Positions 31,301 through 34,300 of a stretch of DNA of 64,000 nt are shown piece by piece. The position numbers are program-made. Location of the stretch: positions 324,073 to 388,072 of the forward strand of contig NVVN01000001.1 of NCBI GenBank assembly GCA_002733355.1, given 5' to 3'. Source of the stretch: Sulfurovum sp. (lineage in GTDB: Bacteria > Campylobacterota > Campylobacteria > Campylobacterales > Sulfurovaceae). The number at the start of each line of letters is the position of its first letter. Within the stretch, counting starts at the first letter, position 1.

Positions 31301-34300
31301 AGATAGAAAACGACATCGTGCAACTTAAAGAACAAATCATAAATCTGGAAGAAAAAGTAAAACCTATCTCACCAGACTGTGGACTTGGACGTCTTACACG
31401 TCTTGAAGCCATGGGAGAGCAACATGTAAACAACAAAGTACTGGATGAATCACGCCTCAGACTCACACGACTAGACAATGCCCTACAACGCATAGACAAA
31501 GCAATGTTTGGTATCTGCATAGAGTGTGAAGAAAGTATAGGTGTCGGACGTATGTCTATACGTCCAGAAAGTGTGAGATGTGTGGCATGTGCAAATCTAT
31601 CATAATACGGTACTAGAGTAAAGCTCCTCTACCTTTCCTATAAGCTCTCTATATTCCCAACTACTTTCCCAACAATAGTCACTTCATCCGCAGCAATAGC
31701 CTGAGGAGGGTAAAGACTATTATCAGAAATGAGCTCTACCATACCGTCTACCCGTTGCTGAATACGTTTGATAAAGAGCCCACCTGTCGTTGAAGCGATA
31801 AAAATACCATTTTTATTAATATTCGTCTGTGTTCTATCTACAAAAACGATGCTTCCATCTTGAAGTGTAGGCTCCATGGACTCGCCATCTACATGGATTG
31901 CTTCAAGCTCTGTATTACCCATGCCAACCATATTGTGCATAATCTTCTCATCTAGCGTAATAGTCTCATAGTTTTCATCAAACACTTCAGCCCCACCCCC
32001 TGCACTTGCACGGATATCAGAAAAATACCGTACTTGAAAAAACTTTTCAGTCTCAACTTTTAACATATCCACTGCCTGATCAAAAAATAGCCAATTGACT
32101 GAAATTTTCTTCAGTGCACAAAACTCCAATATCTCTTCATAAGGGATGGAATTTCTTTTCTTCATCGTTGCAAAAGTTGCCTGAGGGATATTCAAAGCAT
32201 CAGCCACATCTTTGTCAAATACTTTTTTACCTATTATGCTTTCTGAAATTACATCTTTTAACTTATCTATCACTTCGCTTAAAACTAACATATTGACTCC
32301 TTTTCCATATATATAGGTAATCATATACTAAGTTTTCTTAAAAGTATGACAATTTGACATATTTTTTAGTATTTTTACCATTTAACTATACAATTTGACA
32401 TATTTAATCATAAAGGATATCAAATGGTATACTCAAAAAATAAAGAATTATTAAGCTACGCAATTAAAATGGGATGTAAAACAGCAGCAGATTTTGCAAT
32501 GTTTTTAAGAGCGAGAAATTCTATTCTAGCTCTTTAATACTTTAACCAAAAAGTAAAATACTAACCTCATCACCTATCACCTTAGAGGTATCTTCTTCTG
32601 AGGTAACCAAGAGTGCTACATTGCCAAGCATATTGGTAAGTATGGCTGAAGAGCCGACTTTTTTATCTTTAAAGTCTACATAGTATTCACCTTGATGTAA
32701 TGAGACATTACACGCAGTAAACTCTGCTTTTTTGGCACGTTTAACAAAAGGCTCTCCAAGTTTTGCTTTGACTATACGCAAAGCACATTTACCACGTTGC
32801 AGTTTCGCTATGAGAGGAACAAGGTAAAGAAGTGCAGTCACTGTAGATGAGAAGGCAAAGCCTGGTAGCCCTATAATGAACTTATCATCTTTACGTGCTA
32901 CCATGATGTGTTGGCCCGGCTTTACACGTACACCCTTAAAGACCACTTCACAGTCAAGTTCGTAAATGACATCTTTCACAAAATCAAAGTCGCCCACGCT
33001 TACACCACCTGTGGTGACTACGATGTCAGATTTCTCTATGGCTTCAGAGATTTCTTTCGTGATAGTTGCTTTATCATCTTTGATGCAACCAAGTTGCAAT
33101 GGCACAGCATCATACTTGTTAACAATAGCCTCTAGTATATAGTTATTTGACGAGCGTATCTGAGCATCATTGGTCTGTTCTTCACCTAACTCTAGTAATT
33201 CTGAACCTGTAGAGAGTATGGCAACTATTGGTTTTTCATACACAAGGACATTGGCAATATTGAGGCTTGCCATCACACCTATCTGAGGAAAGTCTATCTT
33301 TGTACCTTTAGGGATGAGTAGTTGCCCTTGAGCATAATTCTCTCCCACTTCGCGCACAGAAAACCCTTGTGACACCTCTTCATTGATAATAATATCGTCA
33401 CCTTCTACACTGACGTTCTCTATAGGTATAAGCGTATCTGCACCATGAGGCATGAGAGAACCTGTAAAGGTTTTGATACACGTCCCACCTATGACCTCTT
33501 TTTTAAGTGCAGAACCAGCAGGATTTACACTCTCAATTTTCAGTCTACCAAGCGTCATGTCTTCATGGATGATAGCATAACCATCCATAGCAGAAGTAGG
33601 AAGTTCTGGAGAGTTATGGTCAGCCACAATATCCATTGCAAGCACATACCCTAAAGCATCTACAAGGTAGAGTTCTTTTATTCTATAACTATTTATCTCA
33701 AGATTTTTTAGTATCTCTATCGATTCATCAAAGTGGATCATATGTTTCCTTCTTCTTAAAAATGAGCATAGCTCATCTTTTAATTGCCCAACGTCAAATA
33801 AACCCTTGGGGTGCATCTCATTAGAGCTTCAGTTGAAACCTCAAGAGTATATTCTTATTATTTTAAGAGCCCTGCACCATCCATAGGTGTGCTTCTATCT
33901 GCAGCGTAAATACGTGCACCATTTTTTACATCATATTTCCATATAGGGGCATTGGCTTTAAAGTCTTCTACAAACGCGTCTATAAGTTCCAACGCTACTC
34001 TACGTCTAGGAGAAAATACAGCCGAAACATACGATGAAGTATGTACAGGCACATCACCTAGCGAATGTGCCATTTTTACAACTGCACCTAGTGCCTTAGC
34101 TTTTTCTTGCCACTCATCAAACCACTTCTGAAGTACAGGCTCATAGATATCAAAACTCAAAGCTTCGATGTCATCTTCTGCGCGTATAGTTCCCACAAAG
34201 GGTATGTACGCACCATAGTTTGACACTGCTTGTTCATCAAGCCAACGACCAAATATTTCTTTAGTGTCTAGCGGGCCATTATAAAGCTCCACTACTTAAC

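Follow-up and report, generated by a model that had tools for sequence, protein, structure and literature searches.

Introduction

To our knowledge, Campylobacter and Helicobacter are standard examples of bacteria without LexA and without the classical SOS response. Where LexA is present, its control of integron integrases is known. Among the closest described systems, the LexA-like proteins of Bacteroidetes carry the PF01381 domain and bind GGA-N5-TCC or CTAA-N5-TTAG, and the accessible text of their description reports no BLASTP matches beyond Bacteroidetes (PMC8565304). UmuDAb of Acinetobacter is, according to the available part of a separate report, derived from UmuD and requires the corepressor DdrR (PMC11332147).

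Here, a comparable locus was analyzed in Sulfurovum sp. (assembly GCA_002733355.1, genome code G000, approximately 94% complete). The window, by which the whole stretch of DNA under analysis is meant, comprises 64,000 nt of contig NVVN01000001.1 (324,073-388,072). We consider it likely that the gene g0637, located within this window, encodes a LexA stand-in of independent phage 186/CI-type origin, a chromosomal master repressor that controls its own gene and a regulon centred on recA. Judging from sequence, the protein probably controls the DNA-damage response whose absence had been assumed for this group. A search of the open-access literature did not turn up any account of this regulator for Sulfurovum, Sulfurimonas, Arcobacter, Epsilonproteobacteria or Campylobacterota.

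Results and Discussion

The Predicted Repressor Gene and Its Protein

The features of the locus are listed in Table 1. The survey's finding had placed g0637 at C6:355710-356396, which matches the open reading frame given there, since the window corresponds to G000:C6:324073-388072. The likely start codon of this frame is the ATG at 32291, which lies 5 nt behind a GGAG and would give a protein of 217 aa; the homologues, among the best 120 in the database, are mostly 216-218 aa long. The combination of a phage-CI-type HTH with an S24 domain, as previously proposed, was recovered by the Pfam profile search, in which PF07022 Phage_CI_repr (31.3 bits, cut-off 22) and PF00717 Peptidase_S24 (78.6 bits, cut-off 23.3) both exceeded their cut-offs. 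The predicted cleavage bond is Ala108-Gly109, with Ser149 and Lys186 as catalytic residues in 228-aa numbering, and the Ser and Lys are in alignment with those of UmuD. Among the 26 orthologues compared, which are 45-88% identical, none departs from the motifs ASAGGG (cleavage) and GxSMEPT (Ser) or from the Lys of KR, which extends the nine of nine homologues counted before. A profile search of the genome demonstrated that g0637 encodes its sole HTH-S24 protein; the single other S24 match adjoins a Ni-SOD gene and looks like a Ni-SOD maturation protease.

The AF2 model of the protein (pLDDT 82.5) matches phage 186 CI, LexA and lambda CI. Its best structural matches are 7jvt, 2fjr and 3bdn, under phage 186 CI and lambda CI, with the 186 CI and lambda-186 hybrid repressors as the top Foldseek matches, and its C-terminal domain fits LexA C-terminal-domain chains with TM values of 0.65-0.78. 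It should be noted that phage 186 CI, the closest fold, is known to be inactivated through an antirepressor rather than by cleaving itself, which counts against g0637 as a LexA stand-in. In the ESM Atlas, the protein falls in a cluster with 2,854 members, for which Campylobacterota is the commonest source, and similar clusters are present in other phyla.

The closest fold being that of a phage repressor, and the database name being "phage repressor protein", g0637 might be regarded as a leftover prophage repressor, with the palindromes described below representing dispersed mobile repeats (REP- or IS-associated) that have no regulatory role. We give this explanation almost no credence, since the gene has housekeeping neighbours (moeA, moaE, moaD, a dksA-like gene and DUF255) and occurs in 56 of 60 congeners as well as in the majority of the families of the class; the survey had counted 23 of 24 congeners. 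No phage genes were found among the neighbours, the lytic, cro and integrase genes of a prophage context included. A 37-aa frame on the plus strand of the spacer between g0637 and moeA was taken as spurious.

Table 1. Positions in the window of the repressor gene, its paralogue, recA and the associated palindromes.
Feature	Position	Strand	Basis and remarks
Predicted operator ahead of HTH-only paralogue	1148..1170		score 23.7; 57 nt before ATG
HTH-only paralogue (g0610 in the survey), predicted regulon member	1228..1464	+	78 aa; sequence comparison
CI-type HTH and S24 repressor gene (g0637)	31638..32324	-	longest ORF, 228 aa
Predicted operator O1 of g0637	32342..32364		minus strand reads AAATATGTCAAATTGTCATACTT; matrix score 32.1
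Second, half-conserved site near g0637	32383..32405		centre 41 nt upstream of O1; score 8.8
recA, predicted regulon member	49018..50061	-	PF00154, 459 bits
Perfect consensus operator in spacer between recA (-) and menaquinone-synthesis gene (+)	50156..50178		score 34.7

The Palindrome and Its Sites in the Genome

The palindrome found upstream of g0637 and of the regulon genes has the consensus ATATGnCAwwwTGnCATAT. That a copy precedes g0637, as claimed previously, can be observed at O1, which differs from the quoted consensus at two positions and lies 17 nt from the first g0637 ATG and 50 nt from the likely start. In the second site, the left arm ATATGTCAAATTG is kept and the right arm is degenerate; this left arm recurs with about the same spacing in many congener g0637 loci. 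Within the 64-kb window, two places deviate from the consensus by at most three mismatches, compared with zero in 100 shuffles.

A matrix built independently of the survey detected 26 sites in G000 with scores of 21.1-34.7, the next best scoring 13.0, in close agreement with the 26 sites above 20 and the next at 14.5 obtained formerly, although each matrix was derived from the sites it counts and is circular to that extent. In 10 second-order Markov random genomes the top scores were 12.7-18.6, with none above 20, just as the survey had found no site in five shuffled genomes. Less circular checks were provided by the number of mismatches to the quoted consensus and by counts of an IUPAC pattern relative to a reversed-pattern control. 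In the former, 27 places in G000 carry at most five mismatches, and 16 of these at most three. With a crude ORF call covering 92.6% of bases, 23 of the 26 sites are intergenic and the other three touch the edge of a called frame (25 of 26 intergenic in the survey). For 25 sites, a correctly oriented ORF start is located from 19 nt before to 148 nt after the end of the site, while the 26th site is 108 nt upstream of a small toxin-antitoxin pair.

The g0637 protein would be the binder of this palindrome and would act on it as a repressor, although its sequence alone fits a repressor or an activator. In a promoter scan, the hexamers TTGTCA/TAGTAT form the only promoter-like pair facing g0637, and O1 covers the -35-like TTGTCA. 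For recA, the same kind of scan gave no convincing hexamer pair overlapping the operator. Binding as an activator or dual regulator, in the manner of lambda CI at PRM, might be suggested by the TTGACA or TTGTCA contained in the operator, which could serve as a -35 element, and by the distances between site and start codon, which vary from 3 to 148 nt. Nevertheless, such a role appears very unlikely, because coverage of the -35-like hexamer at g0637 corresponds to the usual geometry of repression. Moreover, the characterized S24 damage-regulon regulators all repress, LexA and the Bacteroidetes regulators being so described in the available text of PMC8565304.

Members of the Predicted Regulon

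The targets named by the survey were reproduced by annotation with Pfam and NCBIfam. Sites are located ahead of recA, radA, ruvA, recG, recQ and a Y-family polymerase, ahead of dprA, comM, yraN, an SRAP operon and a nuclease, and ahead of restriction-modification operons, two toxin-antitoxin pairs, an integron integrase and g0637 itself. The recA operator lies 94 nt from the recA start, and RecA is presumed to be the co-protease for the g0637 protein. The integron integrase is recognized by TIGR02249 (411 bits, cut-off 265) and has its operator 148 nt upstream of the start; a repeat search over 5.2 kb beside it gave no clear array of attC-like cassette repeats. Several small ORFs of the regulon match no family in Pfam or NCBIfam.

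Sites also precede IS200-like transposase genes, one in G000 and three in the congener G034, which was counted in favour of the explanation by mobile repeats. Against it, the position of the site upstream of recA and of dprA is constant across 30 genomes each, and the published Sulfurovum REP sequence, as given in the accessible part of its source, is unrelated to the palindrome (PMC4690160).

From this gene set we infer a DNA-damage regulon, a designation to be read in the light of the missing site at uvrB and of the many members that are mobile or defence genes. The best score at uvrB in G000 is 0.4, which counts against a textbook SOS set. Members without a link to DNA likewise count against the SOS reading, these being the DUF485-symporter-acetyl-CoA synthetase, purT-like and thioredoxin/thioredoxin reductase operons. 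No cell-division inhibitor was recognizable among the predicted members. In addition, searches for uvrA (E<=1e-20) and recN (E<=1e-10) gave no match in G000, which is no proof of their absence because the assembly is 94% complete.

The genes recA, dprA, radA, comM and radC constitute the cytoplasmic DNA-processing set of competence regulons elsewhere. Sites at the first four, and at radC in G034, together with the lack of one at uvrB, would also suit a different reading, in which g0637 binds the palindrome but governs a recombination and transformation programme of the competence type, triggered by incoming single-stranded DNA or another signal. The induction of competence genes by DNA damage in Helicobacter pylori, as reported in the available text of PMC2912397, was counted in its favour. 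Nevertheless, comEC carries no site, and ruvA, recG, recQ, the Y-family polymerase and SRAP are genes of repair and damage tolerance. On balance, a programme of this type is considered rather unlikely. Should the trigger be RecA on single-stranded DNA, the SOS and competence readings would overlap and would not be mutually exclusive.

Conservation within Sulfurovum

Returning to g0637 as a LexA stand-in, its operators are conserved in position throughout the genus. The repressor gene has its own operator in 29 of 29 congener loci, and recA has one in 30 of 30 genus loci, G000 included. For dprA, 28 of 30 genus loci reach a score of at least 15, while the remaining two score 13.9 and 14.0 at the same position. 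The corresponding counts of the survey, namely 21 of 23 congeners, 21 of 22 and 20 of 22, are thus sustained in a larger sample. The loss of the repressor coincides with that of the operators in G015, the only complete congener (94%) that lacks it, as had been noted earlier. Here, the IUPAC pattern has 0 matches in comparison with 1-24 in the other congeners, and no site was detected at recA (best score -9.2), at dprA (best score -17.6) or anywhere else in the genome. In G042 and G054, the repressors are 63% and 74% identical and the recA operators are near consensus, with scores of 33.6 and 34.7.

A full reconstruction of the predicted regulon in G034 recovered recA, radA, ruvA, recQ, comM, the Y-family polymerase, dprA, the repressor gene and the paralogue, and added radC. 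In G031 and G044, sites are present and only the HTH-only paralogue was found, which counts against the LexA stand-in; the repressor is likely missing because of missing assembly, these genomes being 80% and 65% complete, respectively.

Distribution in the Class Campylobacteria

The survey's statement that LexA is absent, based on no match in this genome and one borderline match in 41 genomes, holds in the larger sample. PF01726 LexA_DNA_bind remains below the cut-off in G000. In the genus, one of 61 genomes has a match, exactly at the cut-off and in a 445-aa frame, and in the class one of 301 genomes exceeds the cut-off; in neither case is the frame a LexA. The class sample is thus in agreement with LexA absence in Campylobacteria. 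The g0637 protein itself has no PF01726 match at E<=1 and reaches 37 bits against TIGR00498 (cut-off 110.95), over residues 125-225 only.

Orthologues of g0637 are present in eight other families, in 6/7, 14/15, 23/23, 6/6, 2/2, 1/1, 11/11 and 4/4 genomes. Their identity is 41-54%, none of them varies at the Ala-Gly, Ser and Lys positions, and related palindromes are located upstream of the orthologue genes. For the sequence comparison, 59 loci were considered, of which nine had no usable ORF and two (L043 and L069) were mis-extracted and left out, so that 48 sequences were kept. The survey's view of a system special to Sulfurovum stands as far as the genus is concerned, whereas the restriction to it does not, because most families of the class have pairs of orthologue and operator.

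In G229 and G093, which belong to other families, the palindrome is also located ahead of recA, and in G229 ahead of radA and comM too; 16 of the 26 pattern places in these two genomes were annotated as loci. At recA in G132, G117 and G130, palindromes scoring 14.1-15.4 lie at -86 to -114 from the alignment start. In contrast, recA in G100 and G091, from two other families, has no recognizable operator of either type, the TTAACA type included, which was counted against the LexA stand-in. The claim that the regulon covers transformation genes is upheld in the genus. In five genomes outside it, no site was found upstream of dprA (0/5), and upstream of comM one was found in G229 only (1/5; score 23.3 at -65). 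That recA is a member in more families than these two genes argues against the competence-type programme.

Helix 3 of the repressor and the operator also vary together. Orthologues with PE[HN]LSILKKR in helix 3, rather than QATFATMKKR, carry the own-operator TTAACAAATTGTTAA, and among 166 loci searched this operator pattern occurs only in five repressor-gene loci. One genus of 34 genomes, in one of the two large families, has neither an orthologue nor a motif match. In the large family f3, S24 proteins of approximately 36% identity occur in 21 of 34 genomes of one genus and may be prophage repressors; papers on Campylobacter fetus, in the text available, treat such S24 genes in this manner (PMC11424552).

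The HTH-only paralogue, which lacks an S24 domain and has no Pfam or NCBIfam match of its own, had been named as an alternative binder. It could bind the palindrome alone or as an obligatory partner of the S24 protein, as it has the same fold as, and 34% identity to, g0637's N-terminal domain, has its own predicted operator, and is the only form found in G031 and G044. The incompleteness of these two genomes reduces the weight of the last point, and helix 3 of the paralogue (PQYFAVIKKRKK) is unlike that of the repressor. In G229 and G093, the operators ahead of recA and the repressor gene are kept, while the paralogue query matches only the S24 repressor gene. The alternative is weakened accordingly and is regarded as highly improbable. 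The free-standing form of about 80-100 aa is present in Sulfurovum and one sister genus and sporadically elsewhere; by sequence comparison the paralogue is not needed for the system, and it may have a modulating role within the genus.

Taking the families together, a CI/186-type S24 repressor may ancestrally have governed a recA-centred regulon, sensed through RecA, in the whole class, with the repressor kept in nearly all genomes of nine of the 14 families sampled, the window's own among them, and lost or rare in the two large families. In Sulfurovum, the regulon would have been extended to dprA, comM, radA, radC, methylase-first restriction-modification operons, the integron integrase, IS200-like transposases and toxin-antitoxin pairs. 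We hold this history to be possible, stopping short of calling it probable.

Proposed Mechanism and Implications

In the mechanism proposed for the LexA stand-in, dimers of the g0637 protein would bind ATATGnCA-www-TGnCATAT through the N-terminal HTH. Occupancy by the repressor would shut off about 26 operons because the palindrome would overlap or abut their promoters. The trigger would be RecA polymerized on single-stranded DNA that results from damage or stalled forks or enters the cell in transformation. The RecA filament would stimulate the S24 domain (Ser149/Lys186) to cut at Ala108-Gly109, which would part the DNA-binding from the dimerization portion and so derepress the regulon.

If this is true, one single-stranded-DNA signal would tie together repair, the handling of incoming DNA and the mobilome in Sulfurovum. 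Transformation-processing genes, restriction-modification and the integron integrase are here placed under one predicted switch, which bears on the coupling of damage and gene exchange in vent and sediment communities. If the module is conserved in most other families, the damage response in Campylobacteria was replaced and not simply lost. Furthermore, phage-type S24 repressors would have been recruited at least one more time, beside Streptococcaceae, Bacteroidetes and Francisella. A concrete operator and gene set are offered for cultivable relatives.

Comparison with Known Systems

The system resembles canonical LexA in its S24 domain, which has both the Ala-Gly site and the Ser/Lys dyad, in the palindrome at its own gene and at recA, and in a regulon with recombination, translesion and mobile-element genes. 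It differs in the N-terminus, which is a CI/186-type HTH and not a winged helix, and in the lack of a site at uvrB. Compared with LexA-controlled integron integrases, the operator here is that of a CI-type repressor and not a LexA box. Phage 186 CI and lambda CI are the best structural matches and have the PF07022 HTH in common with g0637, which is set apart from them by its lack of prophage context, its vertical inheritance across the class and its predicted control of host genes.

UmuDAb is likewise an S24-family repressor of a damage regulon in a LexA-less genus, according to the available text of PMC11332147, but g0637 would originate from a CI-type repressor and not from UmuD. The non-canonical LexA proteins of Bacteroidetes, as far as their published description is accessible, share with g0637 a chromosomal, autoregulated S24 protein, in which the HTH is of phage type and the cleavage residues are conserved, in a LexA-less clade, and both systems were found by comparative genomics (PMC8565304). 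With its chromosomal location, its own operator and its sites at repair and translesion genes, g0637 agrees in these respects with the functional definition of a non-canonical LexA in the text available from that source, namely a chromosomal repressor of a canonical SOS network. The published description also sets the two apart, as g0637 has PF07022 and another palindrome; at E<=1 its protein has no PF01381 match. Because of PF07022, the different palindrome and the other phylum, g0637 would represent a take-over separate from the Bacteroidetes LexA. FddR of Francisella (available text of PMC13148647) and HdiR of Streptococcaceae (named in the accessible part of PMC8565304) are similarly phage-derived S24 repressors of a damage response where LexA is absent or unused. 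Next to them, g0637, with its site at about 26 operons in G000, recA included, can be read as a further case of a phage-type S24 repressor recruited to serve as a non-canonical LexA.

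Proposed repressor and its domains

The survey's finding described the regulator as a phage-CI-type helix-turn-helix (HTH) joined to an S24 self-cleavage domain, which is borne out by matches to PF07022 Phage_CI_repr (31.3 bits; cut-off, 22) and PF00717 Peptidase_S24 (78.6 bits; cut-off, 23.3). The true start is probably the ATG at window position 32291, which would give a protein of 217 aa; GGAG lies 5 nt ahead of it, and the lengths of the 120 best database homologues are mostly 216-218 aa. A promoter-like TTGTCA and TAGTAT pair ends at 32325. A second site is observed at window 32383-32405, 41 nt upstream of the gene's main operator; its left arm is conserved and its right arm degenerate. 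It is seen again in many congeners and may support cooperative binding as an auxiliary site. The locus is not a prophage, as housekeeping genes surround it (DUF255, a dksA-like zinc-finger gene, moeA, moaE, and moaD). The only other S24 match in G000, the Sulfurovum genome studied, in which the window spans C6:324073-388072, adjoins a Ni-type superoxide dismutase gene and is explained by an S24-like protein that looks like a maturation protease. Short runs of N occur across all contigs of G000 (1,961 N in C6, e.g., window 50081-50082) and account for the X seen in several translations; they have the look of masking, not of assembly gaps.

Across 26 orthologues (45-88% identity to the first sequence), S96-A97-G98-G99-G100, G136, S138-M139-E140-P141-T142, and K175-R176 are invariant (217-aa numbering), and in a looser orthologue set the ASAG and Lys columns are kept in 48 of 48 usable sequences; phmmer places the repressor's Ser and Lys opposite their UmuD counterparts. 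In the AF2 model (mean pLDDT 82.5), the best structural matches are phage 186 CI and lambda-186 hybrid repressors, followed by LexA and lambda CI, and the C-terminal domain reaches TM 0.65-0.78 against LexA C-terminal-domain chains. The reported lack of LexA holds: its DNA-binding domain stays below cut-off throughout G000, and appears in 1 of 61 genomes of the genus, exactly at cut-off in a 445-aa frame, and in 1 of 301 genomes of the class that are at least 90% complete, in a 92-aa frame. The repressor itself fails the lexA equivalog (37 bits; cut-off, 110.95), which it matches with its C-terminal part only.

Coordinates of the repressor system and of operator-preceded loci
Feature	Position	Strand	Remark
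Repressor ORF	window 31638-32324	-	228 aa, longest frame
Repressor-gene operator	window 32342-32364		2 positions off the consensus quoted by the survey
Exact-consensus operator	window 50156-50178		upstream of recA
HTH-only paralogue	window 1228-1464	+	78 aa; operator at window 1148-1170
Ni-type superoxide dismutase gene, then S24-like protease	L029:1022-1770 (G000:C22)		protease of 92 aa
Restriction-modification loci with operator (G000)	L007 C6:227986; L012 C6:162472; L016 C6:190305; L017 C1:26372; L014 C3:37696		
Integron integrase	L018:3887-4852 = G000:C1:8133-9101	-	TIGR02249, 411 bits, cut-off 265
Integron-integrase operator	L018:5001-5023		148 nt upstream of integrase start
IS200-like Y1 transposase genes behind operator	L019:5005-5502 (G000); L171, L179, L180 (G034)		1 in G000, 3 in congener G034
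Loci with changed recognition helix and TTAACAAATTGTTAA	L075, L078, L079, L081, L118		two other families

Predicted operators and regulon members in G000

A symmetrised matrix, seeded with 16 genomic places at most 3 mismatches from the consensus and then iterated, reproduces the 26 sites proposed earlier at scores of 21.1-34.7, the next best in the genome being 13.0 and the maxima in 10 second-order Markov random genomes 12.7-18.6. These counts are circular because the matrix was built from the very sites counted; a non-circular check gave 17 occurrences of the pattern against 1 of the reversed-pattern control. The claim that 25 of the 26 sites are intergenic stands for 23, the other three touching the edge of a call in the crude ORF set used (92.6% of the genome covered). 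A correctly oriented ORF begins from 19 nt before to 148 nt after the end of 25 sites, and the 26th is followed, 108 nt downstream, by a Gp49/HI1420 toxin-antitoxin pair.

The targets named by the survey are recovered as family matches behind the sites. Recombination, repair, and damage tolerance are represented by recA, radA, ruvA, recG (NF008169, 717 bits), recQ, a Y-family polymerase (PF00817), and an operon of a methyltransferase, DUF4389, SRAP, and DUF234; dprA, comM/YifB (TIGR00368, 429 bits), yraN, and an ExeM/NucH-like nuclease are transformation-associated or nuclease members, and the regulators are the repressor gene and its HTH-only paralogue. The restriction-modification members comprise three C5-methylase-led operons, followed by MutH-like, HNH, and Eco47II nucleases, an ORF6N and type III operon, and an Mrr-like gene. 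As none recurs among the 16 annotated sites of G034, these operons look strain-specific; they seem to be strain-specific recruits, or their operators move with the cassettes. Mobile and defence members are the integron integrase, an IS200-like transposase, two toxin-antitoxin pairs, a DUF3024-Fic operon, and a DUF7014-RhuM operon. LexA controls intI, to which the operator at the integron integrase here is a parallel; the next 5 kb, briefly searched for repeats, gave no clear attC array. The IS200-like Y1 transposases behind the operator may belong to the REP-associated kind; the REP sequence published for Sulfurovum, as given in the available part of PMC4690160, bears no relation to the operator. 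A DUF485-symporter-acetyl-CoA synthetase operon, a purT-like operon, and a thioredoxin/thioredoxin reductase operon have no evident DNA link. In G000, uvrB has no operator (best score, 0.4), comEC lies outside the site set, and searches at the chosen thresholds did not detect uvrA or recN.

Conservation within the genus

The conservation claimed for the repressor and its operators was confirmed. An orthologue (at least 63% identity) is present in 56 of 60 congeners, and its own operator in all 29 congener loci fetched (scores 18.3-32.1). Those without an orthologue are G015, G033, G031, and G044 (94, 58, 80, and 65% complete), the HTH paralogue alone being found in the last two. Among 30 genus loci, G000 included, recA has the operator in every case (22.8-34.7); at dprA the score is at least 15 in 28 of 30 and 13.9 and 14.0 in the remaining two, all 30 sites lying 67-78 nt ahead of the start. 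In 59 of the 60 congeners the 19-base pattern (at most 1 mismatch) has 1-24 occurrences (reversed control, 0-2); in the whole genome of G015 it has 0, and neither recA nor dprA has a site there (best scores, -9.2 and -17.6), so that this congener without the repressor also lacks these operators, as the survey had stated. The most divergent repressors, those of G042 and G054, accompany near-consensus recA operators (33.6 and 34.7).

The regulon was reconstructed independently in the complete congener G034, where 16 of 19 pattern places are annotated. Behind these lie comM, recA, ruvA, radA, a Y-family polymerase, recQ, radC, three IS200-like genes, DUF234, DUF308, and a PLD-like gene, and at four places only ORFs without a Pfam family; by coordinates, the other three adjoin the repressor gene, the paralogue, and dprA. 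The radC gene (L182:2058-2714), with its operator 38 nt upstream, is absent from the 26 sites of G000.

Distribution in the class and the possible role of the paralogue

The main addition to the survey's finding is a predicted spread of the system beyond the genus, to the class. Among 300 further Campylobacteria genomes, near full-length homologues (41-54% identity) occur in eight other families (6/7, 14/15, 23/23, 6/6, 2/2, 1/1, 11/11, and 4/4 genomes), and two large families have homologues in 7/90 and 27/124 genomes at about 36% identity or less, with the exception of G276 in family f2 (49%). With the Sulfurovum matrix, 9 of 25 loci outside the genus have a site of at least 17.6 upstream of the orthologue, 8 have a weaker relative (8.7-14.7), typically ATATTtCAAAATGAAATAT, and 8 have none; four of these last have a different palindrome with the same centre, TTAACAAATTGTTAA. 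Orthologues with this operator carry PE[HN]LSILKKR as helix 3, not QATFATMKKR, and the TTAACAAATTGTTAA pattern was found in 5 of 166 loci searched, all of them at the repressor gene. Changes in the protein and in its operator therefore go together.

A relaxed pattern is enriched in orthologue-bearing families (pattern/control, for example, 20/1, 18/2, 17/2, 16/2, and 15/0) and occurs in 0 of 34 genomes of one genus without an orthologue. Its annotated places (16 of 26 in G229 and G093 together) lie upstream of recA, radA, the repressor gene, and an integrase in G229 (family f7), where comM also has a site (23.3), and upstream of recA, the repressor gene, and a resolvase in G093 (family f6). 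Palindromes scoring 14.1-15.4 precede recA in G132, G117, and G130; recA has no upstream operator in G100 and G091, one genome from each of the two TTAACAAATTGTTAA families, so the regulons of these families may be small or different. Outside the genus, dprA has a site in 0 of 5 genomes and comM in 1 of 5.

These genomes also bear on the HTH-only paralogue, which the survey had kept as an alternative binder of the palindrome. It shares 34% identity with the repressor's N-terminal domain but differs in helix 3, and is separated from the repressor gene by about 30 kb; the spacing in G034 is comparable, and the paralogue there has an operator too. The free-standing form is found in the genus and in one sister genus, with sporadic occurrences elsewhere. 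For most other genomes, including G229 and G093, the paralogue query meets only the N-terminal part of the S24 repressor, and operator and regulon thus exist without the paralogue, which weakens that proposal. The paralogue may still modulate the system within the genus, and could be a non-cleavable competitor, corepressor, or feedback element.

Proposed mechanism and comparison with known systems

The regulon proposed by the survey is supported in silico: sequence analysis shows the domains and residues of the protein, the sites, and the way in which repressor and operator are conserved, lost, and varied together, and binding, the sign of regulation, and the trigger are what we infer. Repressor dimers would occupy the palindrome at promoters and repress them, RecA filaments on single-stranded DNA would stimulate self-cleavage at Ala-Gly, and the regulon, the repressor gene and recA included, would then rise. 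Judged from sequence, this mechanism as a whole is likely. The trigger would be single-stranded DNA, so that induction could come from damage as well as from incoming transforming DNA. The genes of the regulon are better matched by a mixed programme of repair, recombination, and transformation than by an SOS set of the E. coli type.

Databases name the repressor "phage repressor protein" or "LexA family transcriptional regulator", and full-text searching of the open-access literature found no study of it. It lies outside the canonical LexA family because of its N-terminal domain, and is not a phage CI member because of its genomic context. Phage-type S24 repressors in LexA's place have been described in Bacteroidetes and Streptococcaceae (HdiR), and those of Bacteroidetes, in the accessible part of that source, have PF01381, recognise GGA-N5-TCC or CTAA-N5-TTAG, and are described as restricted to that phylum (PMC8565304). 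Francisella FddR, another such repressor, binds GTG-N11-CAC, and its regulon is presented in the portion available as small and without canonical SOS genes (PMC13148647); the Acinetobacter regulator in LexA's place is, according to an excerpt, a UmuD derivative (PMC11332147). Compared with the described S24 stand-ins, the Campylobacteria family has another HTH family, another operator, and another phylum, and its regulon includes recA.
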